Source: Oscillospiraceae bacterium (lineage in GTDB: Bacteria; Bacillota; Clostridia; Oscillospirales; Ruminococcaceae). From it: a stretch of 64,000 bases of DNA. A program made the position numbers and the translations under genes. Under the pieces are notes generated by a model. It had not been told where the DNA came from and did no database searches. It saw only the letters and a program-made list of their open reading frames with translations. How positions within the stretch are numbered: the first letter of the stretch is position 1; the number at the start of each line of letters is the position of its first letter. Location: NCBI GenBank assembly GCA_022766785.1, contig JALEOL010000024.1, positions 14,153-78,152 of the forward strand, given 5' to 3'. Below are positions 10,181 through 28,449 of the stretch, piece by piece.

Positions 10181-13081
10181 TTATTCCGCCGCTCTCAGAA
10201 CTGCTTCACTGTAAAGCGCAATTCCCCGGGTGCTGTTCGGGTGTATCCAGTCGATGAGATAGTCCGTCTGCACCTCCAGACTGAACACACGATTTAGTTC
10301 GGCGGCAGGGTCGCTGAACACAAAGCCGTTTTCGCCGCAGTATTCAGCCAGCGCCGCCGAATACTCCGCAAGCAGCCGGTCGCGCTCCTGCGCCGGGATA
10401 ACGCACGCTTTGTCGTTCTCAAGTGCGCACCACGGCGCGACAAACGCAAATTCCGCGTCCGGTCTCTCCTCCCGTATGCGCCGCACAAAGCCGTCGATCC
10501 GGGCGATGTAGTCCTCCGCGGTCATCGCGCAGAGGCTCTTGTCACGGTAACGCACATCGTTCGTGCCTATCGCGACAACGTACAGCGAGCTGTCCGCCGG
10601 GACTTCTCCCAGTATCGACCGTGTGGTGGCTCCTCCCCTTGCGGTCACGCGCCAGTCCGGAACCGCTCCGCAAAGCGGCTCAAACCAGCCGTAGCCGCCG
10701 TTTTTCGTGCCATGGGTAATGCTGTCCCCCACGAACCTGACCGTCTCCGCGCCGCTCAGCTGCTGATACAGTGGTGAGCTTTCAAGCTCCGGCGTTATTT
10801 CCAGAGGAACGACTTCCGGGGCGAGATACCCTTTCTCGTCAAGATAGCAGCGCTCCGCCGCCATATTGAACGGCAGCTCCACCCCGAGCACGGTGGACGT
10901 GATATGCGCCCAGACCTCCTTAACGCGCGCCAGGTCGTCCGCGGAAACGCCGCCGTCTGTAAGCCCGGCTATCGGCACCGGGCGGTAATTTCCGCCGTTT
11001 TCCGCGGTTATCCACATCGGAACGACAGCGGCGCCCACAGGCTTTCCGGTCTCCCGGTCGATGTAGACCTCTGCGATGATAGAGCAGTCGCCGTTGTGCT
11101 CCCGGTAAATATTCATGAAATTGCCGGGGCAGTTCACCGTGATCTTTCCGTCGGTAAATTCCACCGGCTGGACTGAATGCGTGTGGTCGCTCAGAATGAT
11201 ATCCGCGCCCTGCTCCCGGAAGAAAGCGTTCCAGGTGTTCTGATAATCGTCCGGCTGGTCAAGGAACTGCGTTCCCATATGTGGGAGGACTACTATGAGA
11301 TCCGGCTGCATTGACTTCGCCAGCGCAAAATCTGCCGCGACCTCTGCCTTTGCCCTGTCGTAATTCGCCCCGGACGGGTCGGCAAGCGCACTTGTGAGAT
11401 ACGAAAGGCTGCCGCCCTCCAGCAGCGTATCCTCGCCATAGCCGTTTGAGCCGAAGGTGTAGCTCAGCACCGCAAGGCGCAGTCCCCCGGTCTCCACCAG
11501 CTTCACCCGGCGCTCCGACTTATCCTCCGCGCTGCGATAGCTCCCGGTGCTGTCAAGACCTGCCTGCTCCAGTATATCCAACGTGCGCAGCGCTCCGCTT
11601 TCGCCCTTGTCAAGCAGGTGGTTGTTCGCGGTGGTCACAAGGTCGAAGCCGGCTTCCTTTACCGCGGCGGCGAACTCGTCCGGGTAGTTCAGGCACACTG
11701 TTTTTCCGTCGTCGTAGTTGCTGGTGGAATAGCCTGCTCCCTCGCCTGCCATAGGACCTTCAAATACCCCGATGGCGAGATCGGCGGAGGATATCAGCTC
11801 CCGGGTGGGGTCGAAAATATCGCCGAAATCATAGCTGCCGTCCTCCTGCCTGCCCAGCTTCACCTGATCCTCCAGCAGCAGAAGATCCCCGGCGAACACC
11901 AGCTTAAAACACCCGTCGAACTGCTCCTGCTGTTCCGGGGTGATCCTGCGGAATATCACATCGCCGCTTTCCGCCGAAGCGCTTTCCTGCTGAACCTCGT
12001 CAGCGCCGCTTGGAATGCAGTCCCGTATGCTTTTGACAAGCGGTACTGCGAACACCGCCGCCGCAAGCGTGACTACCGCCGCCCGGTAAGCGAGCTTCCT
12101 GCTGTCCTTAGTCTTTCCTAAGCCGGAGAGCAGCAGCTCCGAGCCGTATTTTCCGAGAGCACGGACAAACCTCTCCACCGACGGCAGCGAGAACACCGCC
12201 GTCAAAGCCAGCGAAGCGCCGAACGCCACGAGCAGCACGGCATATTCCGGCAGTCCGCCGATATTCCTGCCTATCCAGATCGTCGGCAGCCTGTGCAGCA
12301 GGAACACCGCCAGAGAGCTCTGCCCGAAACGGCTGAGCAGGGGTATTTTCCTGTCCGGCAGCAGGAACATCACCGCGAGTATCACAAGCGCGGCAATTAC
12401 AAAGATAACGCCCCGGTCGATAAGCCCGAAAACCCCGGAGAACGGCTCCATCATCATGCTGCCCAGAGTTACCTCCCGGCTCACGAACAGATACGACAGA
12501 AAGCTGCACACCATAAGCAGCAGGGCGCATTCCACCCGGCGGAACGACTTCGCACGCAGCGCGCTTTCCGCCTTTTCGGAGGGCAACATATATCCGGCGA
12601 GGAAGAACGGCAGGAACGAAATTATCCTTGATATGCTCAGCACGTTAGTCACATCGCCGAAGAAGCCGCACAGCAGCGCCGCCGCGACGCTCACGGGAAT
12701 GATATGCGGTCTGCCCGAAAGCCACTGCGCGGACGCTCTCCAGGCAATGACCGCCAGCAGATACCAGAATGAATACACCGGAGTCACCAGCAGCGACATC
12801 ACTCCGCCCGGCGCAGCAAAGCACATCGCAAAATTGAACACGAAATAAAGCGACAGCAGCCCGAAAAGGCTCTCCTGGCTGCGGCTGTGGCTGCTTTTGC
12901 TGAGATAGCCCGTGGTGAACACGAACGCCGGCATGTGGAATATGTAAATTATATTCAGCACCGGCGTGATAAGCTCACCGCCGCTGGTCTCATACAGGAT
13001 ATGCGCGAATACGACAAGGAAAATAAGTATCCCCTTGAAATTATCCCAGAAATAAACCCTGGAGCTGGTATTATCAGGCAT
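10181..13081 (-). CDS. Fusion: membrane acyltransferase-3 + CapA/PGA_cap metallophosphoesterase-like + SGNH/GDSL domain
   Basis: N-term WDNFKGILIFLVVFAH...FHMPAF (AT3); middle FAGDLLL, ANNHLLDKG, PHMG, HTHSVQP (CapA); C-term GDSIT, GTND, DWIHP (SGNH). Confidence 0.85.
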   Translation of the reverse strand: MPDNTSSRVYFWDNFKGILIFLVVFAHILYETSGGELITPVLNIIYIFHMPAFVFTTGYLSKSSHSRSQESLFGLLSLYFVFNFAMCFAAPGGVMSLLVTPVYSFWYLLAVIAWRASAQWLSGRPHIIPVSVAAALLCGFFGDVTNVLSISRIISFLPFFLAGYMLPSEKAESALRAKSFRRVECALLLMVCSFLSYLFVSREVTLGSMMMEPFSGVFGLIDRGVIFVIAALVILAVMFLLPDRKIPLLSRFGQSSLAVFLLHRLPTIWIGRNIGGLPEYAVLLVAFGASLALTAVFSLPSVERFVRALGKYGSELLLSGLGKTKDSRKLAYRAAVVTLAAAVFAVPLVKSIRDCIPSGADEVQQESASAESGDVIFRRITPEQQEQFDGCFKLVFAGDLLLLEDQVKLGRQEDGSYDFGDIFDPTRELISSADLAIGVFEGPMAGEGAGYSTSNYDDGKTVCLNYPDEFAAAVKEAGFDLVTTANNHLLDKGESGALRTLDILEQAGLDSTGSYRSAEDKSERRVKLVETGGLRLAVLSYTFGSNGYGEDTLLEGGSLSYLTSALADPSGANYDRAKAEVAADFALAKSMQPDLIVVLPHMGTQFLDQPDDYQNTWNAFFREQGADIILSDHTHSVQPVEFTDGKITVNCPGNFMNIYREHNGDCSIIAEVYIDRETGKPVGAAVVPMWITAENGGNYRPVPIAGLTDGGVSADDLARVKEVWAHITSTVLGVELPFNMAAERCYLDEKGYLAPEVVPLEITPELESSPLYQQLSGAETVRFVGDSITHGTKNGGYGWFEPLCGAVPDWRVTARGGATTRSILGEVPADSSLYVVAIGTNDVRYRDKSLCAMTAEDYIARIDGFVRRIREERPDAEFAFVAPWCALENDKACVIPAQERDRLLAEYSAALAEYCGENGFVFSDPAAELNRVFSLEVQTDYLIDWIHPNSTRGIALYSEAVLRAAE

Positions 13082-13179
13082 GGCTTTTTCTCCCTTTTAT
13101 CTTTTCTGCGCCGCACGGAAGTCTATGCGGTTTTTCTTTATTCTACCACAAACCGTCCGAGAATGCAAGCCGCAGCGGA

Positions 13180-13212
13180 AAAAAGGCGGAAACACCGCTG
13201 TGCCTCCGCCTG
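13180..13212 (-). terminator. Intrinsic terminator after the 3' half of the asparagine synthetase gene
   Basis: AGGCGGAGGCAC...GTGTTTCCGCC followed by a T-run on the minus strand. Confidence 0.6.
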
Positions 13213-13217
13213 TATGC

Positions 13218-13652
13218 TCACCTTATCTCAACATTGTATTCCCTCAGCCAGAACTCCGTCTGGAGCATGTATGCGTATATCTGCGGCAGCGTCATCAGCT
13301 GACCGTACCAGTTTTTGGTGAAGCTCGCTCCGTTCGTGTCCAGCAGCTCCCGGAGCTTGTCGGCGCTCACCAGCTCGACTAACCGGCAGTCGTCCCTGTC
13401 CAGAACGCTGCGCAGCCTTTCGCTCAGCAGTCTGAGATATTCCGGGTCGTAGGTCTTTGGGTAAGGGCTTTTCTTCCGCCAGAGCACGTCGTCCGGCAGT
13501 ATTCCGGTCATGGCATGGCGCACAAGCCCCTTTTCCCTGCCGTTGTACGCCTTCATCTCCCAGGGCACGTTATAGGCGTACTCCACCACGCGGTAGTCGC
13601 AGAACGGCACGCGAACCTCCAGCCCGTGCGCCATGCTCATTCTGTCCTTGCG
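13218..13652 (-). CDS. asnB: 3' segment (144 codons + stop) of split glutamine-hydrolysing asparagine synthetase (AsnO/AsnB type)
   Basis: RKDRMSMAHGLEVRVPFCDYRVVEY...REKGLVRHAM...LWRKKSPYP; no proper start/RBS; begins immediately after the TGAC core. Confidence 0.92.
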   Translation of the reverse strand, partial: RKDRMSMAHGLEVRVPFCDYRVVEYAYNVPWEMKAYNGREKGLVRHAMTGILPDDVLWRKKSPYPKTYDPEYLRLLSERLRSVLDRDDCRLVELVSADKLRELLDTNGASFTKNWYGQLMTLPQIYAYMLQTEFWLREYNVEIR

Positions 13653-13681
13653 GTCACGCCGCGTCACATGGGTAAAACAGT

Positions 13682-15199
13682 TCACACAACAAAACTGACC
13701 TCTACCGGGGAGGCTTTGTCCCAGACCGTGACCCGCGCTATCAGCAGCTTTGCTATCGCTTTCCGGTCGGCAAGAGAAAGATCCTCCCAGTCCTCCAGCA
13801 GCGGCAGGATACGGTCGGCGGCGCTCTCCTGCTTTGCTTCGGCAGAATACCGCTGTATATCGGCGTTAAGCTCGCTCAGCTGACGTTCAAGGACTGCCAT
13901 TTTCTCGTTCAGCCTTGTCCGGAGCAGCGCGTTTTCAGCCTGCGAAAAGCTCTCCACAATGCCGCTTATCTCCTCCTCCAGCTTTATTCTCCGGGCTTTG
14001 AGGGAGTTCAGCCCGGTCTCCTCTGCGGCTGACCTGTCCGCGGAATGATAGCGCAGCCCCTTTGCACGCTCCAGCAGAGCAGCACTAACGGCGTTCTCGA
14101 TCTCGTCAAAGGTAATGCCGCTCTTTCCGCCGCAGCAGACGTGGTGCTTCCTGCCGCCGCAGTACAAATAACGCTTCCCGTTGTGCTGACCGCTGACGAC
14201 ATTAACCGCATAGCCGCAGAAGCCGCATTTTATCAGCCCGGACAGCCAGCTGTGCGTTCCCCTGCCGCTGTTTCTGAGCGCCTTGTTCTCGGATAGGCGG
14301 CGCTGCACCCTCAGCCAGTCGCCGGCGGAAATGAAACCCTCGTGCCGGTTGAGCTGAATGTGTTCGCCCTCAAGGTCGCGGAATTTGCTCCTCGTCTTTC
14401 CCTGACGATGACCGTAGACCGTGCAGCCGCACACTCCTGCGAACTCGCTCACATCGTTGTGGAGCACCGCGCCCCGGCTCACGAAATAGGAATACACGTC
14501 CGCGTCCGCCCGGACATACACAGGGTTCGCCAGTATCCTGCTTATGCGGACGCTGCTGAACCGGATATCCTGATCTGTCCCGTGTTCCGGGGAATTCAGC
14601 TCCGCCGCTATCTCGCCGATAGATCTGCCGGACAAATAGCTGCGGTAAATGTACTTCACGATATGACTGGTGCTGACATCTTCTTCAAGCCTGCTGGTCT
14701 TTTTGCCGTCGATCTGGTCTGCGATCTTCCGGTACCCAAGCGGCGCTGCGCCCGCCATGAAAAATCCCCTCTCCGCCCTGCTGTAAAAATTGTCGGTCAC
14801 ACGCTTCTGGATAGTCTCGCGCTCCAGCTGCGCAAAGATAAGTATCACCCGGAGCATGGCTTCGCCCGTAATGCTTGTGGTGTCAAAATCCTCGGTCGCG
14901 GACACGAAATCCACATGGTGCCGCTTCAGTTCCCGATAGGTCAGCTCAAAATCCAGCACCGAACGGCTCATGCGGTCGATCCTGTAGACGATCACCTTGC
15001 TCAGCCTGCCGGCTCTGACGTCGGACATCAGGCGCTGAAAGTCCGGGCGGTTGGTGTTCTTTCCGCTGTAGCCCCTGTCGCTGTACACCATTACGTCGGT
15101 CTCGCCTTTCCGGAGCTTTGCGCGGCATTCCTGCTCCTGGGTCTCAACGCTGATACTGTCCTTTTTGTCCACCGACTGTCTGCAATATATCCCTGTCAC
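13682..15199 (-). CDS. Large serine recombinase (resolvase + recombinase + zinc-ribbon domains; SpoIVCA/CisA-like)
   Basis: Catalytic IYCRQS, YSDRGYSGKNTNRPDFQRL, RIDRMSR, GLIKCGFCG...YLYC. Start placed at GTG 15199 after RBS GAGGTG. Confidence 0.95.
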   Translation of the reverse strand: MTGIYCRQSVDKKDSISVETQEQECRAKLRKGETDVMVYSDRGYSGKNTNRPDFQRLMSDVRAGRLSKVIVYRIDRMSRSVLDFELTYRELKRHHVDFVSATEDFDTTSITGEAMLRVILIFAQLERETIQKRVTDNFYSRAERGFFMAGAAPLGYRKIADQIDGKKTSRLEEDVSTSHIVKYIYRSYLSGRSIGEIAAELNSPEHGTDQDIRFSSVRISRILANPVYVRADADVYSYFVSRGAVLHNDVSEFAGVCGCTVYGHRQGKTRSKFRDLEGEHIQLNRHEGFISAGDWLRVQRRLSENKALRNSGRGTHSWLSGLIKCGFCGYAVNVVSGQHNGKRYLYCGGRKHHVCCGGKSGITFDEIENAVSAALLERAKGLRYHSADRSAAEETGLNSLKARRIKLEEEISGIVESFSQAENALLRTRLNEKMAVLERQLSELNADIQRYSAEAKQESAADRILPLLEDWEDLSLADRKAIAKLLIARVTVWDKASPVEVSFVV

Positions 15200-15252
15200 A
15201 TTATCCCACCTCAAAGACAATGGAGCGCGAAAATATCACGCCCCGTTTTCCG

Positions 15253-15384
15253 CTATGCGCTCTTCTGCGGCTTCGCCTGCTTCTTCTGAGCCGCCGCTAA
15301 TTTCAGCAGTCCGTCCGTTATGACACCTATCCTCTGGCTGCGTTCCTCCTCGCTCAGCTGTGGGTATACCAGCTTTACCTGCAT
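15253..15384 (-). CDS. Unannotated 43-aa protein upstream of the recombinase; candidate recombination directionality factor
   Basis: RBS GAGGTGA 5 nt before ATG; MQVKLVYPQLSEEERSQRIGVITDGLLKLAAAQKKQAKPQKSA*; below the ORF-track size cutoff. Confidence 0.65.
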   Translation of the reverse strand: MQVKLVYPQLSEEERSQRIGVITDGLLKLAAAQKKQAKPQKSA

Positions 15385-15433
15385 TCGCCTCACCTCATCA
15401 CAAGTAATGCTGTACTGTTCGTCCGTTATTCAC

Positions 15434-15466
15434 AAAAAAGCAGGCGGAGCGACTCGCCCCACCTGC
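15434..15466 (-). terminator. Intrinsic terminator separating the cargo from the small ORF/recombinase unit
   Basis: GCAGGTGGGGCGAGTCGCTCCGCCTGC-TTTTTT on the minus strand. Confidence 0.75.
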
Positions 15467-15472
15467 ACTTTC

Positions 15473-17240
15473 TTATTCAATAACGAACTGCTTTACCTCG
15501 TCGCAAAGCTGAACCGCCTGAGTATTAAGCTCCTCGCAGGAAGCAGCGATCTCCTGCGCGGCTGCGCTGGTCTGCTGCACAACGTCGGATATCTGCGAAA
15601 TGCCGTTGGTGATCTGCCCGATCGACTTTGACTGATACTCCGCAGCGGCGGAAATATCGCCGATCATCTGCTTTGTTCTGCCGAATATCTCCACCACAGA
15701 TCCCAGCGACTGAGCGTTCTTTTCCGCGATCTCAGACCCCTCCGACACCGCCGATACCGCCGCCGTGATAAGCTGCGACGTTGTGCGGACGGCTTCTGCG
15801 GATTTTGCAGCAAGGTTTCTCACCTCGTCGGCTACCACTGCAAAGCCCTTTCCTGCCTCCCCTGCCCTTGCCGCCTCTATCGCGGCGTTGAGAGCAAGGA
15901 TATTCGTCTGGAATGCGATATCGTCTATCGTCTTGTTTATCCGTTCGATCTCGCCGGACTGCTTAGGGCAATACCGCATAATTATTGTCGTGCGATTGCG
16001 CCGCAGATTTTTCGTTAGATTGTACAAATTGAGTGCAGACAGGCTGACGCCTTTCAAGCGAAATTTGTGCAAGATAACGGAAAAGATGCAAGCAAGCGTG
16101 CGGCAAAGGCGACAGCCGGTAATTGTGCGGTATTGCCTTAGAGATGTTCTCCATTGCGGACATCATCTGATCCATGTACCTGTGCTGTTCGTCAAGCACC
16201 GCCGAGCCGTTGTCCGCAAGCTCCAGAGCGCCGCGCGACTTGTCCGCGGTCTCGTTCACCTTCGCAGATATCTCGCCCAGCGATGAGGAAAGCTCCTCGA
16301 TAGCCTCCGCCTGACGCACAGTTCCTGCCGCCAGAACGTCCGAGCCTTTTGCGGAAGCCGAAGCGTCGGCGTTTACGTTATCTGAGGTGACGTTGATCTT
16401 TGAGATGATCTGCTTCATCTGGTCAGAAATAAGCTCCACCGACCGGTTCAGCTCAACAAAATCGCCGCTGTACACCGCCTCGGTGTGTTCCGTGAAGTTC
16501 CCGGCAGCCATCGAACCCAGCACCCGGGACAGATCCTCAATGTACCCGTGCAGAGTATCGCGCATGTTCTCCACCTGCGAAAGCAGCTCGCCTACCTCGT
16601 CCTTTCCGTGACGGACATCGGTTATCTGACAGCTGAGGTTGCCCTTGTTCATCTCCTTTGCCAGTTCTCCGATATGAACCACCGGGGTGAGTATCCTGCG
16701 TCTGATGATCCTGAGACACACGATCACCGCTGCGGCAGTTATGACAATAGTAAGACCGACTCCCACAATGCTCATGACAAGCATTTTCTGGTCAAGCATA
16801 CCGTTGATAACGCCGGTCTGGTAGCCGCCGAAATACGCGCCGATGATATTGCCGTTTTTATCCGTCATCGGCTCGTAGCATACCACATAATCGCTTCCGC
16901 CTATGGTCGTTCTGCCCAGATAGGTCTGACCCTTTTGCAATACACGTTCGGCGATCTCTGCGGACATTTCCGAGCCTTCGATACGTTTTCCGTCCTCGCC
17001 CTCAATGGTGGTGGCGTACCTTATGTTGTCCCTGAATATGGTGAACTGACCGCCGGTTTTTTCGCGGACAGGATCAAGATGATCATATGCGCGCAGGTCG
17101 TATCCTGCTATGAACGACCCGGCTCCGTCGATCTTTGTCAGATAGCAGTAGTACAATCTGTCGCTGTCGTAATTGAGACCGTCTGTAACGGAAGAAAGGC
17201 TGGCGTTCTGCGGGAAATTCTCCGTCGCACATATCTGCAC
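15473..17240 (-). pseudogene. Methyl-accepting chemotaxis protein (Cache-TM-HAMP-MCP signal), interrupted by a MITE and apparently 5'-truncated
   Basis: [37 protein letters not shown] in the downstream ORF; Cache/HAMP in the upstream ORF; removing 15967-16141 restores ...[12 protein letters not shown]...; first TM helix missing. Confidence 0.88.
15967..16137. mobile_element. 171-bp MITE with 18-bp terminal inverted repeats and 4-bp target duplication TTAG
   Basis: TIRs GGCAATACCGCATAATTA / TAATTGTGCGGTATTGCC (17/18 match); TTAG at 15963-15966 and 16138-16141. Confidence 0.9.
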
Positions 17241-17301
17241 GCCAGTTGTGTTATTTTGTTTGATCTGCGCTATTGCTGATACACATGGTCTGCCCCGGGG
17301 G

Positions 17302-18681
17302 TCAACCCTCGCAGGTATCCGTGATGTTGCTTATCCAGATACCCTTTCTTATCAGCACATAACCGATGACAAGCTTCAGTATATCCGCCGCCTGAATAAT
17401 GGTGTATATCACAAAAACAGACAGCGAACTGAACCGGCAGAGCAAAAACGCCGCCGGAACAACGATCACCCAGGTGAACACGCTGTCGAACAGAAAGGTC
17501 ACAAAGGTCTTTCCGCCGGAACGCAAGGTGAAATACAGCGCGTTGAGATAGCCCTGCACCGGGAAAAACAGTGCGGTTATCACAATAAACAGCGCAGCGT
17601 TCTTCCGTATTTCGTCCGTTGTGTCATAGAAATCCGGGAACACGCCCGAGACGCTGACAAGTATCACGGTCAGGATAATGCAGATACCGCCGGTGAACCT
17701 CATCAGCGCAAAGGAGTCCTTTTTCGCCTGTTCATACTGCTTCGCGCCGAGGGTCTGACCTATCAGGATACCCACCGCGTTGCCCAGGGCGATGAACACG
17801 ACGTTCAGCAGGTTGCACAGCGCGTTAGAAATATTAATTCCGGGAACGATATCAAGCCCCAGAATGGAATAATTCTGCGTCAGCGCTGCAATGCCGCCTG
17901 CCCACAGGAACTCGTTAAAGAATATCGGCAGTCCCTTTCTGATAATGACCGAGGCGGTTTTCACCGGCACCAGCATAGTCCTGTACGCTCCCTGCAAAAA
18001 GGCATGACGCTTCTTTCTGACGAACGCCCAGACTATCACCACCAGCATTTCCACCACCCTAGCAATGACGGTAGCAAGCGCTGCGCCTTTCACGCCCATT
18101 TCGGGGAAACCGAGCTTTCCGAAGATCAGCAGATAGTTGAACAGAATATCCGTCACAACAGAGAACACGCCGCCGATCATCGGTTTAATGCTGTCGCCGG
18201 TTTCCCTCAGCGTGCTTGCAAAGATCTGCGTCACGGCAAACGGCAGCAGTCCCCACAGCATTATCCCGAGGTATTCCCCGGCAAGCTGCATTGTGAGCAC
18301 GGGATCGACAGTTTCGCTCTCCCCCTGAAGATACAGCCCGATAAGCTTATCGCCGCCCAACGTGAAAGCCAGCAGCCCCAGCGCAAGGCATACCGCGCAG
18401 ACATAGTGCTTTATCCGGAAAGTGTTCCTGACCCCCTCGATATCGCCTTTTCCGTAATACTGCGCGGAATAGATACCGGGCCCGGACAGCCCTCCGAACA
18501 CCGCCAGATTGAATACGAATATCAGCTGACCCACGATAGAGACCGCGGATATCGCCTCAGTGCCGAGATTTCCCACCATGATATTGTCGATAAGCCCTAC
18601 CATGTTGGTTATCCCGTTTTGTATCATCATGGGCACCGCAAGCGCCAGCGCCCGTTTGTATATGCTGTTGTTCTGATACAT
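17302..18681 (-). CDS. MATE family efflux transporter
   Basis: LAVPMMIQNGITNMVGLIDNIMVGNLG; FGKLGFPEMGVKGAALATVIAR; about 12 hydrophobic segments; start at MYQNN after GGAGAGGGAG. Confidence 0.93.
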   Translation of the reverse strand: MYQNNSIYKRALALAVPMMIQNGITNMVGLIDNIMVGNLGTEAISAVSIVGQLIFVFNLAVFGGLSGPGIYSAQYYGKGDIEGVRNTFRIKHYVCAVCLALGLLAFTLGGDKLIGLYLQGESETVDPVLTMQLAGEYLGIMLWGLLPFAVTQIFASTLRETGDSIKPMIGGVFSVVTDILFNYLLIFGKLGFPEMGVKGAALATVIARVVEMLVVIVWAFVRKKRHAFLQGAYRTMLVPVKTASVIIRKGLPIFFNEFLWAGGIAALTQNYSILGLDIVPGINISNALCNLLNVVFIALGNAVGILIGQTLGAKQYEQAKKDSFALMRFTGGICIILTVILVSVSGVFPDFYDTTDEIRKNAALFIVITALFFPVQGYLNALYFTLRSGGKTFVTFLFDSVFTWVIVVPAAFLLCRFSSLSVFVIYTIIQAADILKLVIGYVLIRKGIWISNITDTCEG

Positions 18682-18726
18682 GTTCTCCCTCTCCTGTTTC
18701 ACGTTTTTTAGAAATGCCCTTTAGTA

Positions 18727-20259
18727 TTACTCTCGCCAATACTCCGAGCCATAGCCCGTCCTGCCCATCAGCTTCAGATCTATCATTTCCCTGCGGATAA
18801 TCGCATAGTCAGAAAAGGTAATATTCTGCATGATGATCTCATTGACCTCTTTTTCGGTGTATATCCTGCCTTTCTCAAAGCATTCCGCTATTCTTCCGAG
18901 GGCAACGATCCTCAGCGGTCTCTTTCGCGGATACTGCGTCAGGCGGCCGTCCCTGTCGTAAAATACAGACGCTTTCTTCCGGTAAGCGATATTTCTGCTA
19001 AGCTCGCACAGCTTTTCATTCAGTTCGCCGATATGCTTTTCGAACCACACCAGCAGCCCCGACGCCAGGTCAGCCTGTTCCAAATAAATATGCCTGTTAT
19101 TTGAAATGGAATCGTAATACTGCCCGTAAAAATTGCATACAGCCAGGAAGTAATAGAACAGCTTCCCTGCGTTTTCTATGTCATAGGCGTTCAGCGTGCC
19201 GATCTCTATATAGTCGTCGATATAGCGTATCAGAGCCTCTATATTTATCTCTCCGCGCCCCGTCTCCGGCGCCATAAAGACATAGGATCGGACGATCTCC
19301 CAGATATACGGGTGCCGGCAGACGCAGGTCCAGTCAACGATCCCGTTCACCTTATCGTCAAGCCATACGAGCTGTGAGATCGTGTAATCGCCGTGGGTGT
19401 TGCCACATGTGAATTTGTCTGTATCGAACTCATACGAGGGCATAGACCCGACAATTCTCATATTGGAACGTATCGCTGCTGCGATATCCTTATCGCCGTT
19501 ATCCTCCGCCTGCCTGAGAGTCTGAAGATAACTTTCCTGTATGTATTGAGGCTTTCTGTGTTCGAAAAAACCGCTGCCTATACCGGTGGGAATATTCTCC
19601 ATATCCCTCATTGCCGCGTGTATCTCTGCAAGCAATACCGCCGACGCTTTCTGCAGACCCACGGGCGCTTCATTGCAGCCATAGGTCACGCCCTCATAGA
19701 ACTGCTGGACGGTAAATCTTCTCCCGTTCTCATCGGTGGAGAGCATTCTGCCATGCTTATCGGGAATAAATCTGCATGCCGGAATGCCTTTCTTTAAGAG
19801 CTGACTGCACACGCGTATCTCCGTTTCCGGGTGATTCATCGCATTATCGGAGGGGTACTTCACAACGTACTTTGCGCCGTTTGCAGTTACGAAATAGGTA
19901 AGCCCCCCAGCGCCGTTCCCGGAGGTCTCCATGGTCTCTGTCTCAATGTCGTAGAGCTTGTATATACGCATTCGCAGCTGCTCGAATTCCAGCTGTCTGA
20001 CCAGTTCCAGCCGCGACCTGTCGATAATGTTCATAAGCTCCAGAATTGGTATGGATTCTCCTGCCAGAAGTTCGTTCACGGTTATACCCAGGATCCGGCA
20101 CAAAGGCTCCATATATACGACCTCCGGCAGCCCGTTGCCGCACTCCCACTTTGATACCGTCTTTTCGCTTATTCCCAGTCTTGCCGCTATGTCTTTCTGC
20201 AAAAGACCGCGTTCTTTTCTGCGCATGGCGATGAATTTTCCTGTCTTTATCTGATCCAT
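18727..20259 (-). CDS. XRE HTH + APH/choline-kinase-like phosphotransferase + DUF2087-like wHTH fusion
   Basis: N-term IAARLGISEKTVSKWECGNGLP; HGDY...GIVDW kinase motifs; C-term YTEKEVNEII...DYAIIRREMID...GSEYWR. Confidence 0.8.
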   Translation of the reverse strand: MDQIKTGKFIAMRRKERGLLQKDIAARLGISEKTVSKWECGNGLPEVVYMEPLCRILGITVNELLAGESIPILELMNIIDRSRLELVRQLEFEQLRMRIYKLYDIETETMETSGNGAGGLTYFVTANGAKYVVKYPSDNAMNHPETEIRVCSQLLKKGIPACRFIPDKHGRMLSTDENGRRFTVQQFYEGVTYGCNEAPVGLQKASAVLLAEIHAAMRDMENIPTGIGSGFFEHRKPQYIQESYLQTLRQAEDNGDKDIAAAIRSNMRIVGSMPSYEFDTDKFTCGNTHGDYTISQLVWLDDKVNGIVDWTCVCRHPYIWEIVRSYVFMAPETGRGEINIEALIRYIDDYIEIGTLNAYDIENAGKLFYYFLAVCNFYGQYYDSISNNRHIYLEQADLASGLLVWFEKHIGELNEKLCELSRNIAYRKKASVFYDRDGRLTQYPRKRPLRIVALGRIAECFEKGRIYTEKEVNEIIMQNITFSDYAIIRREMIDLKLMGRTGYGSEYWRE

Positions 20260-20491
20260 TGTTTTTCTCCATTCACAATTTTTTCATGGAGTGATTATAT
20301 CATTTTTAATTATAGATTGGAACCCACGCTCCGTAGGATCCGATACCTGATCACTGCTATGTCTTTTTTATTATACTACATTTCCCCGTTTTTTTCAACT
20401 GGTTTTCATCGCGGAACAGCAAACGCCCCGGCTATGGTATGCCAGACATATAAGGTGTGATCCGGTCAGCGGCGCATAATTAATTTCTCTA

Positions 20492-20520
20492 TTGACTAAC
20501 AGCACAATTTAGTATATAAT
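20492..20520 (+). promoter_or_regulatory. sigmaA promoter of the HD-GYP gene
   Basis: TTGACT-17-TATAAT. Confidence 0.7.
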
Positions 20521-20580
20521 AGTATACAGAGCGATCCCCACCCTATAACAAAAGGCACCTCTATAATAAACGGTGATAAT

Positions 20581-23505
20581 ATGAAAAAAACCATTACTAT
20601 ACTTCTTTCTCTCGTGATAATGTTCGCCGCGTCGGTAAATGCCTTTGCGGAACACACCATGTCCTATGTCGGAAGTATCTTCAACGACCGCAACGGGCTT
20701 CCCACAGGTGAAGCAAACGCAGTCGTACAGACCCCCGACGGCTACATCTGGATAGGAAGCTACGCCGGGCTTATCCGCTACGACGGCACCGTGTTCCGCA
20801 ATTTCAGCGAGGAGGGCGCGCTCCAGACCGCCACGGTGCGTTCGCTGTTCGTGGATTCCTCCGGGCGGCTGTGGGTCGGCTCCAACGACATGGGCGTGTT
20901 CTGCATGGAGAACGACGTTTTCGTTCAGCCGGAGGGTCAGCCTGCGGACAGCTTCTCCACGATACGCAGCTTCACCGAGGGAGAAAACGGCGATATCTAT
21001 GTGTCAAGCTCCTCGGGGCTTGCAAGAGTTTCCGGCGGCGTGATGTCCATTTACGACGCGCCCGAGCTTTTCGGGCACACTGTATACTCCACCGCAGTCG
21101 ATAAATTCGGACGGGTGTGGTGCTCCACCAACTCCGGCTGCTGCGTTATCCTGCCGGACGGCACTATTGAGGGCACCCCGGACAGCAGCCTTATCTTCCG
21201 GGACGGGGAGAATATCTACAGCCTTGCCTCGGGAAAGGACGGAGCTGTCTGGTTCGGCTCTGACAGCAATATTCTTGCAATGGCGGAGTTCACAAGTAAG
21301 GCACTCTCCCCTGACGGGCTGAAAGTTACCTATTACAGCACGGAAAACGTCTATACCCACAACAGCATTGGCGTGCTCCCGGACGGCGGCGTGACAGTCC
21401 ACGGGCTGCGCGGCTTCGGGATACTCAGAAACGGCGGGTTCCTCGGCTTCGGAGAGGACGAGGGCGCGGCTTCGGTGGAGGGTTCCTGCGTTGACTATGA
21501 GGGCAATATCTGGCTCGCTTCCTCCACAAACGGCGTCGTGAAATTCACCGAGGGCTGCTATTCCACCCCGGACAGCAGCGCCGGGCTTTCCGGCAAATCC
21601 CTGAACACGATAGTTGGACAGGGCGGCTATTTCTTCATGGGAACGGACAACGGGCTGCTTATCTGCACGGAAAACTGGAAGCCGGTCTCAAACGACCTGA
21701 CCGCCGGTCTTGACGGAATAAGAGTGCGCCATATCATCGCAGACAGCAAGGGATATGTCTGGATAGCGTCCTATTCAGATACCCCGGTTATACGCGTTGA
21801 CCCTGCGAACTGGGAAACGGTATGCTACACCCAGGCTGACGGGCTTGCGGACAGGAACGCGCGTACTCTGCTGGAAATGTCCGACGGCTCGATAGCTGTG
21901 GGAATGCAGAACGGGCTGAGCATTATCACCCCCGCAGGAAACATCACCGGCTACAACGACCTCGCATATCCTGCTATACTCTGCATGACCGAGACCAGCA
22001 CCGGCGCTCTGCTTGCCGGCAGCGACGGCGGCGGTATCTACGAGATAGACGGCGGAAATATCACCGTGCACAGCTACTCCGAGGGACTGGACAACGGCAT
22101 TATACTGCGCATTATCGAGGACTCGAAACCGGGCTGCCTGTTCGTCAGCACCAGCAGCGGCATGTTTTATTATAACGGCACATCATTTCGAAAATTGTCG
22201 AAACTGAACAAAAGCCCCGGCAACATATTTGATATGTACCTTGTGGGCGACAGCCTTTACCTGCTGCAGAACAGCGGAATACTGACGATCCCCCGGGAGG
22301 ACGTTATTGCTGACAACGGCGCTCCCTCGCTCAGCTACGGGTTTGAGCACGGGCTTTCCGGCTCGCTGTATGCAAATACCTGGCACTGGCTCTCGCCGGA
22401 CGGGAAGCTGTACCTCGCCACAAGCAGCGGCGTGAGCATTTTCGGGTTCCACCAGCCCGAGAGCATTCTGCCAAAGGGCGTGGTGAACAGCATAACCGTG
22501 GACGGCACGGTGACAGAGCACCCACAGTCGCTGGAGATAAAAAAGGGCGCGCACCGTATCACGATCGATTTCGCGGCGCTCTCATACACCGGAACGACGC
22601 GCCTTGCGATAGCCTACAAGCTGGACGGCTTCGACAGCGAGGAGACGGTCATCACAGGCGAAAAGAAAGCGAACATCAGCTACACCAACCTGCCCGGCGG
22701 CGAATACACCTTCACCATGCGGATATTCCTCACCGACCACCCGGAGCAGAGCGAGACCTACACCGTCCCGATAAAAAAGGAAAGAGCCTTTTCCGAAAAG
22801 CCGGCGTTCGTGGCGCTGCTGATATTCTGCGGCATTGCCTTTGCGGTGGGAATTACCAGCCTTATTCTTTTCGCAAGGATAAGGGTGATGAAGCGCCGGC
22901 AGAAGATGTATAAGGAGATCATCGACCAGTCGCTGAAAACCTTTGCCGGGACGATAGACGCCAAGGACAAGTACACCAACGGACATTCCCTGCGCGTGGC
23001 GAAATACTCCCAGGAGCTGGCGCGCCGCATGAACATGAGCAAGGAGGAGCAGGAGCGGATATACTACATCGCCATGCTCCACGACATCGGAAAGATCGGT
23101 ATCCCCGACAACATTCTGAACAAGCCCGGAAAGCTCACCGATGAGGAACGGCAGATAATCCAGAAGCACCCTGCGATAGGCGCAGATATACTAAAGAACT
23201 ACACGGCGATCGAGGGCATTGCGGACGGTGCGAGATACCACCACGAAAGGATCGACGGAAAGGGCTACTGCGAGGGGCTTTCCGGGGACGATATTCCGCT
23301 GATCGCCCGTATAATCGGCGTTGCGGACACCTATGACGCTATGTCCAGCAGGCGCTGCTACCGTGACTGCCTGTCCTCGGACGTTATCATTGAAGAGCTG
23401 AAGCGCGTGGCAGGCAGCCAGCTCGACCGGGATATAGTTCCGCACATGCTGGATATGATAAAGGACGGCACAGCACCGATAATTCTCCCCGAGGACAAGG
23501 CATAA
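20581..23505 (+). CDS. Membrane sensor HD-GYP phosphodiesterase: signal peptide, beta-propeller (Reg_prop) repeats, YYY domain, TM, HD-GYP
   Basis: DGYIWIGS/GRLWVGS repeats; SYTNLPGGEYTF; DKYTNGHSLRV, LHDIGKIG, HHERIDGKGY, VADTYDAM. Confidence 0.9.
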   Translation: MKKTITILLSLVIMFAASVNAFAEHTMSYVGSIFNDRNGLPTGEANAVVQTPDGYIWIGSYAGLIRYDGTVFRNFSEEGALQTATVRSLFVDSSGRLWVGSNDMGVFCMENDVFVQPEGQPADSFSTIRSFTEGENGDIYVSSSSGLARVSGGVMSIYDAPELFGHTVYSTAVDKFGRVWCSTNSGCCVILPDGTIEGTPDSSLIFRDGENIYSLASGKDGAVWFGSDSNILAMAEFTSKALSPDGLKVTYYSTENVYTHNSIGVLPDGGVTVHGLRGFGILRNGGFLGFGEDEGAASVEGSCVDYEGNIWLASSTNGVVKFTEGCYSTPDSSAGLSGKSLNTIVGQGGYFFMGTDNGLLICTENWKPVSNDLTAGLDGIRVRHIIADSKGYVWIASYSDTPVIRVDPANWETVCYTQADGLADRNARTLLEMSDGSIAVGMQNGLSIITPAGNITGYNDLAYPAILCMTETSTGALLAGSDGGGIYEIDGGNITVHSYSEGLDNGIILRIIEDSKPGCLFVSTSSGMFYYNGTSFRKLSKLNKSPGNIFDMYLVGDSLYLLQNSGILTIPREDVIADNGAPSLSYGFEHGLSGSLYANTWHWLSPDGKLYLATSSGVSIFGFHQPESILPKGVVNSITVDGTVTEHPQSLEIKKGAHRITIDFAALSYTGTTRLAIAYKLDGFDSEETVITGEKKANISYTNLPGGEYTFTMRIFLTDHPEQSETYTVPIKKERAFSEKPAFVALLIFCGIAFAVGITSLILFARIRVMKRRQKMYKEIIDQSLKTFAGTIDAKDKYTNGHSLRVAKYSQELARRMNMSKEEQERIYYIAMLHDIGKIGIPDNILNKPGKLTDEERQIIQKHPAIGADILKNYTAIEGIADGARYHHERIDGKGYCEGLSGDDIPLIARIIGVADTYDAMSSRRCYRDCLSSDVIIEELKRVAGSQLDRDIVPHMLDMIKDGTAPIILPEDKA

Positions 23506-23541
23506 GCTGCGGTTTACGGGCAATAAACGGTGACGAATAAG

Positions 23542-23579
23542 CGAGCGACACTCCGAAAAAGGCGTGCCGCTCGTTTTTT
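23542..23579 (+). terminator. Terminator of the HD-GYP gene just inside the element end
   Basis: CGAGCGACAC...GTGCCGCTCG-TTTTTT. Confidence 0.65.
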
Positions 23580-23643
23580 CGTATTCACCGGGATAAAGCG
23601 TACATTCTCGGTTTAAAAGGGATTTTACCTTTGTATCACTATC

Positions 23644-25035
23644 GTCAAGCAGCGTTGCCATGAAATAGTCCATATTCATCATGAACATCTCCCTCATGCG
23701 GCGCTCCCCGGGGCTGTCGCTGTCGAGATACTCCGTCCGGGAAATGCACTTGCTGCAGCTTCTACGAACGTATTCCTCCGCCTCTATTCCGGACATCGGG
23801 CGCTTCATCAGCTCCGCCCTTTCGGGAACGGCAGTAGACCATGGGAAACCGTCATAGAACAGTAATTCCCTGCGGTGATACCACGGATATCCCCCAAGCA
23901 CCTCGTCCGCGCATTCCCCGGAGAGCGCCACCGGGAAGCGCTTTCGTATCTCCCTGCAGAACAGGTACAGCGAGCTGTCCACGTCCGCCATTCCAGGGAG
24001 ATCCCGCGCCCGGGTGGAGTCCTCCAGCGCGTCCGCAAGCGCCGGGGTTTCCAGTATCACGTTGGTGTGCTGCGACCCGATGTGCTCCGCCATGCGCACT
24101 ATCCAGGGGGCGTCCTCGTCCGGCTGGAAGCTGCTGGCGCGGAAATTCCTGTGGTTGTCCCTGTAGTCTATTGACCAGGTGGAAAGCTGCCTGCCCTGCT
24201 TTCGGAACTCCTCCGCAGCGACCGCCGAGATCACGCTGCTGTCCAGTCCCCCGGACAGAAAACAGCACAGCGGCACGTCGCTCACCAGCTGCCGCTTTAT
24301 TGCGTCGGTGAGAAGCTCCCTGATATGCGCCGAGGTCTCCTCAAAGCTCTCCGTGTGCGGCTTTGCGTGGACCTTCCAGTATTCCGTCAGGGTAAATCCC
24401 TCATCGGTCAGCACCGCGTAATTTGCCGGGGGTATCTCGCTGATATCGCGGAAAACGCCGCTGCCCACCCTCTTAGCCGGGCCTATCAGCATGATGTCCG
24501 CAATGCCGCTCTCGTCTATCACCGGTCTCACCTGGGGGTGCTTCAGCAGCGCCTTTATCTCGCTGGCGAACACTATGCCGTCCCGGGTATGGCTGTAGAA
24601 CAGCGGCTTTACGCCTATCCTGTCCCTTGCAAGGAAAAGCCTGCGCCTGCGGCTGTCCCATACCGCAAACGCAAATATACCGTTGAACTGCTTTACGCAC
24701 TCGTCGCCGTATTCCGCGTAGGCTCTCAGCACCACCTCGGTATCCGAATGCCCGGAAAACTCCACGCCGCGCCCCATAAGCCCAAGCCGAAGCTCCTGCG
24801 TATTGTAAAGCTCCCCGTTGTACACCAGCGTGTAACCGCCATAACTCATGGGCTGCGCACCGTTATCCGGGTCAATGACCGCAAGACGGCGATGTACAAG
24901 ATATGCGTGATCGTCAACATACACCCCCGAGGCGTCAGGTCCCCGGGGAGCTATAGCCTCGCTCATCTGCGTCATCACCGCGCTCATCTGCCGCATGTTT
25001 TCATGGTATCCTATCTGACCTGCAATACCGCACAT
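23644..25035 (-). CDS. asnB: 5' segment (464 codons) of split asparagine synthetase (AsnO/AsnB type)
   Basis: N-terminal MCGIAG (Ntn Cys), RGPD, YNGELYN, ARDRIGVKPL, LSGGLDSS, SGECADE; homology ends at FMATLLD; RBS AAAGGAG. Confidence 0.93.
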
Positions 25036-25066
25036 GGAAATATCTCCTTTCACTGAGTTCTTCATC

Positions 25067-25095
25067 ATAATATGCGTATCTGGGGTTTTGTGTGA
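25067..25095 (-). promoter_or_regulatory. Putative mother-cell sporulation (sigmaK/sigmaE-type) promoter of the split gene
   Basis: TCACA-16 nt-CATATTAT about 30 nt upstream of the start; no sigmaA consensus seen there. Confidence 0.65.
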
Positions 25096-25233
25096 TTTTC
25101 TGGTTTTTTTGAGAAAGAAAAAAGGGCTGCCATAATGACAGCCCCAAAAAAGGGAAAGGGAGCGGGATATCTTAAAGCGAGAAATTACGCTTTAAGTCAG
25201 ATGAATTTGCCGCATACTCTATTTTTATGCGGA

Positions 25234-27327
25234 TCATACGTTGAACAGAAGCTCATCGTATGTCGGGAACGGCCAGTACTCCTCACCGACGATAGTTTCA
25301 AGCTCGTCAGCGACTGCTCTCAGGCTCTGCATTGCAACGAATACTTCATCGCAGTAAACCTTTGCCTGCTCGGGGATATCGGAGATGCCCTGTGCCTTTA
25401 CAATAGCCGCATTCAGTGCGTCTATCTTCTCGTTGAGGGAAACGGTCAGTGTGTTGACCTTATTTACAATGCCGAGTTCAACTGTAGGCTCAACGCCGAC
25501 TGCCTTCTTGCTTGCTGCAATGTCGCATACGTCCTTTGAATACTTCATGACAGCCGGAAGGATCTCGGTCTTTGCCATATCGCTGGTGGTCAGCGCCTCG
25601 ATGTTGATGGTCTTTGAATAGTTCTCGTAGTTGATCTCCTGACGTGCGTGCAGCTCGACCTCGCTGTATACGCCGAACTTGGTGAACAGCTCGACAGACT
25701 TCTTGTCGGTGAGGCAGGGAACAGCAGCAACTGTGGACTTCAGGTTCGGCAGACCTCTCTTTTCTGCCTCAACAGGCCACTCAGCGCCATAGCCGTTGCC
25801 GTTGAAGATAACGCGTCTGTGCTCCTTGATGGTCTTTACCAGCAGGTCGTGAAGCGCGGTCTGGAAGTCGTCAGCCTTCTCCAGCTCGTCTGCGAACAGC
25901 TTGAGTGAGTCAGCTACTATCGTATTGAGTACAGTGTTCGGGCCTGCGATATTCAGGTTGGAACCGCACATTCTGAATTCGAACTTGTTACCGGTGAATG
26001 CGAACGGAGATGTTCTGTTTCTGTCGGTGGTATCCTTCGGGAAGCTCGGCAGGGAGGAAACGCCTACGTTGAACATAGTGCCGCTCTTGCTGGTGTAGTC
26101 AGTGCCTTCAACCAGGGCGTTTACAACAGCCTCCAGCTCCTCGCCGAGGAAGATGGAGATGATAGCAGGAGGTGCTTCGTTAGCGCCAAGTCTGTGGTCG
26201 TTGCCGGCGGAAGCTACCGACAGTCTGAGCAGCTCTGCGTACTCGTCAACAGAACGAATGATAGCCGCAAGGAACGTCAGGAACTGCGCGTTCTCCATCG
26301 GGGACTTGCCGGGATCAAGCAGGTTCTGACCGTCATCGGTGGACAGCGACCAGTTGTCGTGCTTACCGGAACCGTTGATACCTGCAAAGGGCTTCTCGTG
26401 AAGCAGGCAGACAAGTCCGTGCTCCAGAGCGATCTTCTTCATCAGCTCCATGGTGAGCTGGTTCTGGTCGGTCGCAAGGTTAGCCGGAGCGAAGATCGGA
26501 GCGTTCTCGTGCTGTGCGGGCGCAACCTCATTGTGCTTGGTCTTGGAGGTGATGCCCAGCTTCCAGAGATGCTCGTCCAGATCCTTCATGTAATCGGAAA
26601 CTCTCTGCTTGATAGTACCGAAATAATGATCCTCAAGCTCCTGTCCCTTGGGAGCCGGAGCGCCGAACAGCGTTCTGCCGGTGAAGATCAGGTCTTTTCT
26701 CTTGTCGTAGGTCTTTTTATCTACTAAGAAGTACTCCTGCTCAGCGCCAACGGTCGCAACGACTCTCTTTGAGGTTGTGTTGCCGAACAGACGCAGAATT
26801 CTCAGTGCCTGATCAGAAACAACGTCCATGGAGCGCAGCAGAGGAGTCTTCTTGTCCAGAGCCTCGCCGGAGTAGGAATAGAATGCGGTAGGAATGTAAA
26901 GAGAACCGTCCTTTACGAATGCGTAGGAAGTCGGATCCCATGCGGTGTAGCCTCTTGCCTCAAACGTAGCTCTGATACCGCCGGACGGGAAGCTGGACGC
27001 GTCAGGCTCGCCCTTTATCAGCTCCTTGCCGGAGAACTCCATGATGACTGTTCCGTCGCCGGCAGGTGAAATAAAGCTGTCATGCTTCTCAGCGGTGATG
27101 CCGGTCATAGGCTGGAACCAGTGGGTGTAATGAGTTGCGCCCTTTTCAATAGCCCAGTCCTTCATTGCGCTTGCAACTACATCAGCGATGCTGCTGTCAA
27201 GCTCCTTGCCCTCGGCAATGGTCTTTTTCAGAGTCTTGAAAACGTTCTTCGGAAGTCTCTGCTTCATCGTTTCCTCATTGAATACGTCAATGCCGAACTG
27301 CTCAACCACGTTAAAATGTTCTGCCAT
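25234..27327 (-). CDS. glnA: Glutamine synthetase type III
   Basis: [63 protein letters not shown]. Confidence 0.96.
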
Positions 27328-27367
27328 GTCCCTTTTCCTCCTGTTGATTGTGTTTACTTTCAGAAAC

Positions 27368-28437: not shown

Positions 28438-28449
28438 GTCGCACCTCCG

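Follow-up and report, generated by a model that had tools for sequence, protein, structure and literature searches.

Is a gene that lies in two pieces on either side of a mobile element a broken gene, or one that can be put back together, and if so, in which cells? The question arises in a stretch of 64,000 nucleotides from contig JALEOL010000024.1 of an uncultured Oscillospiraceae bacterium (below, the window means this whole stretch). Here an asparagine-synthase-family gene (the asn gene) on the minus strand is divided after codon 464 by an element of 9,991 bp that carries a large serine recombinase (LSR). A previous reading of the sequence alone, made without database searches, had described an asn gene split by a serine-recombinase element of about 10 kb, and both halves, the element and the LSR at its end, beside the 3' fragment, were all found again (Table 1). 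Judged from its anatomy, its recurrence and the state of the gene around it, the gene-intervening element is real and excision-competent, and a coupling of its excision to sporulation is plausible. That this island is excised mostly in the sporulating mother cell is proposed tentatively, with somewhat less than even confidence.

The 5' piece encodes 464 residues, from MCGIAG to MATLLD, its DNA ending with ATGGCAACGCTGCTTGAC at 23644. The 3' piece encodes 144 residues starting with RKDRMSM, its DNA beginning with CGCAAGGACAGAATGAGCATG at 13652. TGAC is present at both junctions. When positions 13653-23643 were removed in silico with a script, 608 codons and a stop codon were read without internal stop, as had been predicted for a precise deletion. 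The joined 608-aa product aligned end to end, over residues 1-607/608, with intact orthologues from 10 congeneric genomes, at 66-84% identity. The split gene is the sole PF00733 gene of the host genome (2.48 Mb in 112 contigs, 85.75% complete). Assembled contigs of four runs from four studies, from pig gut and one sheep sample, were compared with the window. Both junctions are bridged by contigs of three of the four runs (X2, records 9 and 16; X3, record 17; X6, record 27), so the integrated form is not a mis-assembly. The contigs of run X1 are short pieces, none of which crosses either junction.

Intact and interrupted alleles were compared in relatives. Among 101 species genomes of the genus, searched with an intact orthologue as query, the asn gene was found in 96; it is full-length in 56, cut by contig ends in 6 and interrupted in 34. 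Interruptions fall at two places, codon ~464 as in the window (site B, 18 genomes) and codon ~379 (site A, 15 genomes), and one genome, G049, is interrupted at both. One of the site-B splits (G092) is only probable, its contig stopping right at the junction. Fourteen genomes have an LSR that shares 52% identity or more with that of the window, and every one of them is split at site B; the LSR adjoins the 3' fragment in 9 of the 11 loci examined. The site-A LSR is only 22% identical to the window LSR; by this comparison, at least two LSR families target one gene. The site-A element of G022, the one genome in which the content of a site-A element was examined, is a prophage of 46 kb, with genes for terminase, portal, protease, major head, sheath, tape measure and tail fibre. 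In G049 the gene lies in three open pieces, covering codons 1-379, 380-464 and 465-608 (L045 2550-2810 and 7957-8391; L046 3587-4717). In G044, an extension of the 5' match to residue 560-595 was considered as a relic copy and ruled out, being a spurious low-identity run with stops.

The arrangement extends beyond the genus. The GTDB collection was scanned with each species represented by one genome. At 21 of the 25 best loci, the LSR relative (42-74% identical) had next to it an asn fragment with its break at the same codon, and 10 of these 21 belong to other genera. None of the other 55 LSR loci, at 35-44% identity, was beside an asn fragment. The genomes concerned are metagenome-assembled genomes of uncultured Oscillospiraceae, Ruminococcaceae or Clostridia. 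A scan of metagenome contigs with the 5' half gave six loci, none from the window's own species; the best, 84% identical and from another species, also ends at codon 464. Viral contigs (IMG/VR) held no close LSR relative, the best being 44% identical, and an asn fragment was present in 0 of 80 loci. The inverted repeat that follows this 44%-identical viral LSR is shorter than, and unlike, the window attP. Some 30 genomes of the genus have a second LSR clade (~39% identical), which sits at another target (for example G021:C2:4833-6302 and G044:C23:319-1788; L092-L119), and 10 open reading frames (ORFs) downstream of it gave no Pfam match.

The window LSR has PF00239, PF07508 and PF13408 domains, all above cut-offs, and matches the phrog_95 integrase at 1e-100. 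Residues R14 and S16, the serine of the YxRxS motif, are invariant in 12 relatives. The relatives align from residue 8, and the true start may lie 21 nt downstream of TTG 15220. The ratio of nonsynonymous to synonymous substitution (dN/dS) between relatives is 0.10-0.19, and by this measure the LSR is under purifying selection. In some genomes the LSR frame runs without a stop into the 3' fragment. At site B, the fused frames are 661 aa in G058 (C66:43726-44181) and 654 aa in G024 (C72:3334-3792), and at site A open frames of LSR and fragment of 780-794 aa are present in G006 (C6:2723-3415), G095 (C93) and G077 (C9). The integrated state may thus give the LSR another C-terminus, or express the 3' fragment.

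The attachment sites could be defined by comparing 16 attL and 14 attR. The sequence-only reading had proposed a shared core of TGAC; this tetranucleotide does stand at both window junctions, but the comparison narrowed the common core to TGA. Each attL examined reads ...CTGCTTGA (TTGA at its end), then A, T, C or G, then element sequence, and in each attR, element sequence leads into TGA and a C (T in one), after which comes the 3' fragment, as CGCAAGGAC or in a synonymous form. An intact attB at site B reads CTGCTTGAC/CGCAAGGACAGAATG, and the conserved site-B attB CTGCTTGAC/CGCAAGGAC. The P' arm of attL is the inverted partner of the P arm of attR, a layout common to the other site-B elements, and the ends of the window element form imperfect inverted repeats (TTTTACCCATGT...GCGTGA and CGATAGTGATACAAAGGTAAAA). 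Inverted-repeat P/P' arms are present in all elements, with clade-specific changes on both arms. In sequence, this dyad pattern at the element ends has the appearance of an LSR attP. At site A, attB reads GAATGCGCCGATGA/RATHTTCGGCGG and the P arms are AACAGGTGTGTTC and GAACACACCTGTT. Both att sites lie within the most conserved motifs of the enzyme, SGECADE/IFGGY for site A and MATLLD/RKDRMSM for site B.

Table 1. Features of the split asn gene and its intervening element (positions in the window).
Feature	Position	Strand	Remarks
5' fragment of the asn gene, codons 1-464 (MCGIAG...MATLLD)	23644..25035	-	both GATase domains (GATase_6/7) and Asn_synthase profile positions 1-223 (Pfam); no stops
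3' fragment of the asn gene, codons 465-608 and stop (RKDRMSM...)	13218..13652	-	Asn_synthase profile positions 225-353 (Pfam); no stops
Intervening element, 9,991 bp	13653..23643	-	both junctions bridged in contigs of X2, X3 and X6
attL	23623..23647	-	core TGAC 23647-23644 and element-side P' arm GATAGTGATACAAAGGTAAAA 23643-23623
attR	13653..13677	-	P arm TTTTACCCATGTGACGCGGCG 13677-13657 and core TGAC 13656-13653
LSR, 512 aa from TTG 15220	13682..15220	-	Resolvase, Recombinase and Zn_ribbon_recom domains
43-aa ORF, candidate recombination directionality factor	15256..15384	-	conserved position before the LSR; complex model
Promoter-like block before the small ORF (AATAAC GGACGAAC ... GCATTACTT)	15402..15430	-	conserved in 4/4 clade-I elements aligned
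Promoter-like element of the asn gene: AC 25093-25092, 17 nt, CATATTAT 25074-25067	25067..25093	-	39 nt before ATG
Cargo: methyl-accepting chemotaxis protein (sCache_3_3, HAMP, MCPsignal), two overlapping ORFs	15473..17240	-	Pfam, contigs
Cargo: MATE efflux protein, 466 aa	17302..18702	-	Pfam
Cargo: HTH_3, APH phosphotransferase and DUF2087 protein, 510 aa	18727..20259	-	Pfam
Cargo: Reg_prop/Y_Y_Y sensor with HD-GYP-type HD domain, 974 aa	20581..23505	+	Pfam

If the split gene were a dead gene, its pieces could be expected to decay. Neither half in the window has an internal stop or frameshift, as had been noted from the sequence, and all 41 fragments surveyed are free of stops (16/16 and 13/13 at site B, 6/6 and 5/5 at site A, and the middle piece of G049). 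Nei-Gojobori dN/dS was 0.013-0.164 for split-gene pairs and 0.043-0.183 for intact-gene pairs, so that split genes are in this respect equal to intact ones. Most informative is the pair G049 and G096, in which the elements are collinear, with 72-88% nucleotide identity across three aligned blocks and an LSR dS of 0.29, and the two gene halves show dN/dS of 0.039 and 0.013 at a dS of 0.45. Open fragments and dN/dS together indicate that the split gene remains under purifying selection while the island is retained, which bears out the suggestion made from the sequence.

One argument for this suggestion did not hold. The intact halves had been contrasted with a decayed cargo gene for a methyl-accepting chemotaxis protein (MCP), which would have made the element resemble a skin-like relic. 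What divides the MCP gene into two ORFs in the window is a surplus of 175 bases (15962-16136). They are missing from a contig of run X3, and their removal gives a single MCP ORF of 530 aa. The decay is thus specific to this assembly, and the gene as it stands in the window may come from a strain variant or from a chimeric assembly. What stands of the proposed asnO-type intervening element is a serine-recombinase element that splits an asn-family gene, whose removal restores the gene exactly, and selection on the halves; the argument from decayed cargo falls. In the same region, a contig of run X6 has 1,473 bp (within 15438-16912) swapped for 51 other letters, and word depth over 15952-16395, which holds the conserved MCP signalling domain, is 17-25 times that of the flanks.

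The rest of the cargo is diverse. No capsid, portal, terminase or tail gene was found in the window's element by the Pfam scan, and it is therefore not classed as a phage or prophage. Phage, relaxase and conjugation genes were likewise not found among the scanned ORFs of the window's element and of the islands of G044, G083, G058, G100 and G096, and the island ORFs scanned include no replication or maintenance function for a circle. Islands of relatives carry a 719-aa protein without family or, elsewhere, a 5'-nucleotidase and a solute-binding protein. Further cargo includes a Schlafen/AlbA_2 ATPase, a small resolvase, a helix-turn-helix protein, BspA-type leucine-rich-repeat proteins, an N6/N4 methylase and Fic, and in one relative a leucine-rich-repeat protein of 1176 aa. 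In G083 (L040 1821-7483), 5.6 kb of extra cargo, with the 5'-nucleotidase, a 313-aa ORF and the solute-binding protein, lie between the LSR and attR; the island of G044, otherwise like that of G083, terminates right after the LSR. This difference suggests that islands gain cargo next to attR. As to the flanks in the window, a type III glutamine synthetase lies upstream of the asn gene (25234-27387) and a 966-aa fusion of Acyl_transf_3, PGA_cap and GDSL domains downstream (10181-13081). This neighbourhood is not conserved: glnN was upstream in 0 of the 31 loci checked, several of which have flanks of only ~1.5 kb, and a PGA_cap gene was downstream in G021 only.

Directly before the LSR lies a small ORF, of 43 aa in the window, preceded by the ribosome-binding site GAGGTGAG. 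An ORF with a core of 40-63 aa is found at this place in all 13 elements for which upstream sequence is available (a rule-based script recovered 12 of the 13), and two of these ORFs have longer N-terminal extensions. The small ORF overlaps the LSR start by 4 nt in five elements and is separated from it by 1-2 nt in three. The two genes appear to be arranged as an operon and co-transcribed. Across LSR clades only ~52% identical, residues M1 and T23 of the small protein never vary, and V3, L27 and I29 hardly do. It matched no Pfam or PHROG family, the PHROG search covering three small ORFs. Upstream, the clade-I elements share a block reading AATAnnGGACGAnC...GCATTAnT. Part of the block, GGACGAAC, recurs in three of the six clade-III elements aligned (G103, G100 and G058); it fits the SpoIIID consensus of C. 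difficile, KRTAACARK (PMC5025042), only in part.

The position of the small protein is that of a candidate recombination directionality factor (RDF). Its complex with residues 150-512 of the LSR was modelled with both partners given as alignments, in three runs and with three controls. The runs scored 0.72, 0.71 and 0.73, versus 0.00 for the best control; the mark applied is reached by 58 of 80 solved complexes and by 2 of 110 mismatched pairs. Contacts agreed between runs to at least 97%, and the predicted local distance difference test (pLDDT) value of the partner was at least 73. In the model, residues 1-8 of the small protein add a strand to the C-terminal sheet at LSR residues 504-512, and its helix 15-33 packs on LSR residues 373-392 and 467-495, flanking the base of the coiled coil. 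Verified RDFs are reported (PMC12286644) to bind the junction of the second DNA-binding domain (DBD2) and the coiled coil, often via an added strand. The modelled contacts at the DBD2/coiled-coil base match this reported mode, and the model supports binding of the small protein to the LSR.

Does the host make spores? Its genome carries Spo0A, SpoIVA and SpoIIID, and SpoIVA is present in 97 of the 101 genomes of the genus; the organisms are uncultured, and their capacity to sporulate is predicted from these genes. In several genomes (G091:C1, G079:C55, G075:C21 and G007:C33) one contig carries both spoIVA and the asn gene, ~6-10 kb apart. Upstream of the asn gene stands a promoter-like element in which AC is followed by CATATTAT. 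Saujet et al. (PMC3789822) describe CATATTAT as a canonical -10 box of mother-cell sigma factors and assign AC to the -35 of sigma-K. Of 32 orthologues, 22 have CATAnnnT between -29 and -43 in their upstream region. As genome background, 48 of 1986 crude genes have it, and 5 of 1986 do if AC is also demanded. The spoIIID gene of the host genome has ATA...CATAAGAT upstream. This promoter evidence for a mother-cell sigma factor is suggestive only. A search of Rfam (E up to 0.1) over 9000-29000 gave no match, so no T-box or riboswitch precedes the asn gene. In Bacillus subtilis, asnO is in the sigma-E regulon and is activated by SpoIIID; of the units that SpoIIID activates, it is among the three that lowered sporulation when inactivated (PMC517825). 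This agrees with the sequence-only reading, which had described asnO as a mother-cell sigma-E gene needed for sporulation.

What the enzyme does bears on when it would be wanted. An intact orthologue (G017) scores 500.7 bits against TIGR01536, for a cut-off of 267.1, and the window protein has the N-terminal Cys nucleophile (MCGIAG) and the GATase and synthetase domains of that type. The nearest solved chain is the 'hydroxyamidotransferase' 7ylz (452 bits), ahead of E. coli AsnB 1ct9 (159 bits). AsnA gave no match in the host genome. AsnRS gave none over cut-off there, and in the genus a single genome of 101 has one over cut-off; the host genome has two GatB and two AspRS-like genes. Since AsnRS was not found and GatB is present, Asn-tRNA is presumably made by transamidation, and the enzyme would not be needed for translation. 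As the gene is nevertheless kept in 96 of 101 genomes, its role would be other than Asn supply for translation, and it is probably specialised. AsnB-type enzymes amidate peptidoglycan in several Firmicutes (B. subtilis, L. plantarum, C. difficile), where meso-diaminopimelate of its precursors would be the substrate.

These observations can be assembled into a sequence of events. The island would sit integrated at the conserved attB of the only asn-family gene, which it splits after codon 464, so that no full enzyme would be made. Once the small protein and the LSR are expressed, attL would recombine with attR in the TGA core, the small protein acting as an RDF that sets the direction towards excision. 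The island would then leave as a circle with a dyad-symmetric attP, and the 608-codon gene would be restored exactly. Both the excision and its timing to sporulation are inferred. Since purifying selection acts on the split gene in hosts that retain the island, excision would take place mostly in cells without descendants. The likeliest such cell is the sporulating mother cell, from which skin, SPbeta, gin and skinCd are also excised, and the island would stay in the germ line, inside the spore. Given the selection on the split gene, the sporulation genes and the possible mother-cell promoter, mother-cell excision is the most economical timing. It is also possible, although doubts somewhat outweigh it, that an asn-family amidotransferase is wired as a developmental gene throughout the genus and its neighbours, with two LSR lineages only ~22% identical, one in small cargo islands with a coupled RDF-LSR operon for excision and one in elements of which the example examined is a myovirus-type prophage, each excised only in the mother cell; the enzyme may in that case act on the cell wall or spore envelope.

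Several points weigh against mother-cell excision. LSR and host trees are incongruent: the host genes of G087 and of G083/G089 are ~96% identical while the LSRs are 64% identical, the LSR dS between G100 and G058 is 0.32 for a host dS of 1.23, and between G083 and G089 it is 0.96 for a host dS of 0.40. By these distances, and by their varied cargo, the islands move horizontally and are not vertical relics. If most insertions are young, intact halves and low dN/dS require no reconstitution. In the main rival account, the island is simply an ordinary mobile one, its LSR using a conserved stretch of a dispensable gene as attB, with excision serving transfer and insertions turning over. The placement of both att sites in the most conserved motifs is as expected if they were chosen for sequence conservation, loss of the gene looks survivable with no AsnRS found and GatB present, and the element at codon 379 in G022 looks like a complete prophage. 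We nevertheless think this account unlikely, though it carries weight, because several observations speak against it: a gene kept in 96 of 101 genomes, no decayed fragment among 41, gene-half dN/dS of 0.01-0.04 beside the collinear elements of G049 and G096 in spite of an LSR dS of 0.29, two LSR families ~22% identical in the same gene with one genome holding both, no relaxase, conjugation or capsid gene among the island ORFs scanned, and no close relative of the LSR in viral contigs, where the best was 44% identical and none of 80 loci had an asn fragment.

The other points against concern the signals and the partner protein. The asn promoter is equally readable as a sigma-A promoter (TCACA/TTCACA-N17-TAnAAT, with TTCACA-N17-TACAAT in several species), and none of the six other genes of the genome with AC-N16/17-CATAnnnT (YqeK, Amidase_6, DUF2935 and three without family) is a recognised sporulation gene. 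No excised attB, empty site or circular attP junction was found in the contigs of the four runs, in which rare forms are dropped; an ordinary mobile island would sit well with this. The complex model gives a likeness of binding mode, which is not proof of binding, and its pass could stem from likeness to the SPbeta integrase-RDF structures in the PDB; the similarity of the LSR to these structures is weak (37 bits, N-terminal catalytic domain only). Finally, the RDF candidate appears co-transcribed with the LSR, and integration requires recombinase without RDF. A reversible switch in growing cells, of the 'active lysogeny' type, would share the anatomy and the selection evidence of mother-cell excision: a nutritional or envelope signal would release the circle, which would persist for as long as the enzyme is wanted and later re-integrate, with no role in sporulation. 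It would agree with a sigma-A promoter, with the sensory cargo of the window (MCP, HD-GYP, kinase) and with the evident integration of islands into new hosts. We consider it improbable, since no replication or maintenance function for a circle was among the scanned ORFs, a co-transcribed small ORF and LSR favours excision over cycling, and, as a weak test, contigs contain no circular junction. A last account dispenses with excision, the 144-aa C-terminal piece being translated from the LSR transcript and assembling with the 464-aa piece. It is true that LSR and 3' fragment share a strand, the fragment coming second, that the stop codon of the LSR is overlapped by an in-frame GTG (13685), and that the LSR frame is open into the fragment in G058 and G024 at site B and in G006, G095 and G077 at site A. 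However, this LSR family breaks the gene in a conserved core motif of its synthetase domain and the second family breaks it in another motif, the ORF of the 5' fragment continues through ~150 unrelated codons, and the arrangement is not uniform across elements, so that a split enzyme seems very improbable.

Excision in the mother cell has precedents. The closest known case is gin in gerE of Bacillus cereus ATCC10987, likewise a non-phage island without phage genes in a coding gene (PMC5595907). Both have a short shared core and strains with differing content, thought to reflect horizontal spread, and as gin is excised by the LSR GirC with the 42-aa GirX, so an LSR and a 43-aa ORF are present here. 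Gin differs in its size of 28.6 kb, its three recombinases and a girX that is not adjacent to girC, whereas the small ORF here abuts the LSR; its target is a late-sporulation transcription factor and its mid-sporulation excision was followed by PCR and Southern blot, whereas here the target is of the amidotransferase family and excision is predicted (PMC5595907). The skinCd element in sigK of Clostridioides difficile shares a clostridial host and the pairing of an LSR, CD1231, with a small RDF, the 72-aa CD1234, which has no database similarity, binds the recombinase and sets direction (PMC5025042). It differs in being prophage-like, in its sigma-factor target, and in having a constitutive (sigma-A) recombinase with a separate sigma-E/SpoIIID-dependent RDF gene, where a single operon is apparent here (PMC5025042).

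SPbeta in spsM of Bacillus subtilis (SprA/SprB) is an active LSR prophage that is excised both for the phage cycle and for gene restoration in the mother cell (PMC4191935, PMC5499854). Its parallel among the elements described here is the 46-kb prophage of G022 at codon ~379; the window element has no phage genes, and the LSRs are distantly related. Skin in sigK of B. subtilis (SpoIVCA), vfbin in spoVFB, vrin in spoVR and yin in yabG are also serine-recombinase elements that interrupt mother-cell genes and are removed in the mother cell (PMC4191935, PMC10747680). They differ as defective prophages of Bacilli or Clostridium sensu stricto, and in the portions of these papers available an asn-family target was not found among them.

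Outside spore formers, the best NCBIfam match of the LSR is XisF of the Anabaena fdxN element (NF041201). Membership in this family was rejected, the score being 162 bits for a cut-off of 375 bits and the best aligned stretch covering residues 45-235 only, in the N-terminal part. XisF is a serine recombinase of heterocyst-specific, developmentally timed excision. The LSR also has a weak PDB match, of 34.5 bits, to the N-terminal domain of TnpX, from elements of the Tn4451/Tn5397 type (TnpX/TndX). These are small LSR-driven clostridial elements with GA inside the crossover core, here TGA. They differ from the window element, which has no mobilisation gene among the scanned ORFs and is strictly site-specific in one gene. 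To our knowledge, TnpX/TndX-type recombinases do not need a separate small partner protein, whereas the window element has a candidate for one. All the characterised gene-intervening elements of spore formers that we know of are in Bacilli or Clostridium/Clostridioides, in regulators or spore-structure genes. A literature search of full texts found no paper naming an asn-family gene as target of such an element, in keeping with the expectation of the sequence-only reading that asnO is not a characterised one.

The element would therefore add a new kind of target, a metabolic or envelope amidotransferase, and a new host group, the abundant uncultured Oscillospiraceae of the gut, here in pig and sheep samples. 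It also adds a conserved, adjacent candidate RDF. The genus offers an unusually clear natural experiment: one gene is targeted at two sites by two or more LSR families with no more than ~22% identity, a third of the species are affected, and one species has both interruptions. Together with the neighbouring RDF candidate, the recurrence and the two sites recommend it strongly for experimental work. Three LSR clades with defined attB/attP and a candidate RDF are material for recombinase tools, and even if excision is unrelated to sporulation, a well-resolved hot attB in a conserved gene remains. The junction sequences are a possible culture-free marker of excision, perhaps of sporulation, in metagenomes. 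If excision is confined to the mother cell, the ratio of attB/attP to attL/attR in metagenomes would report gut sporulation in situ. The enzyme would in that case be made exactly when the spore is built, and the spore would inherit the element.

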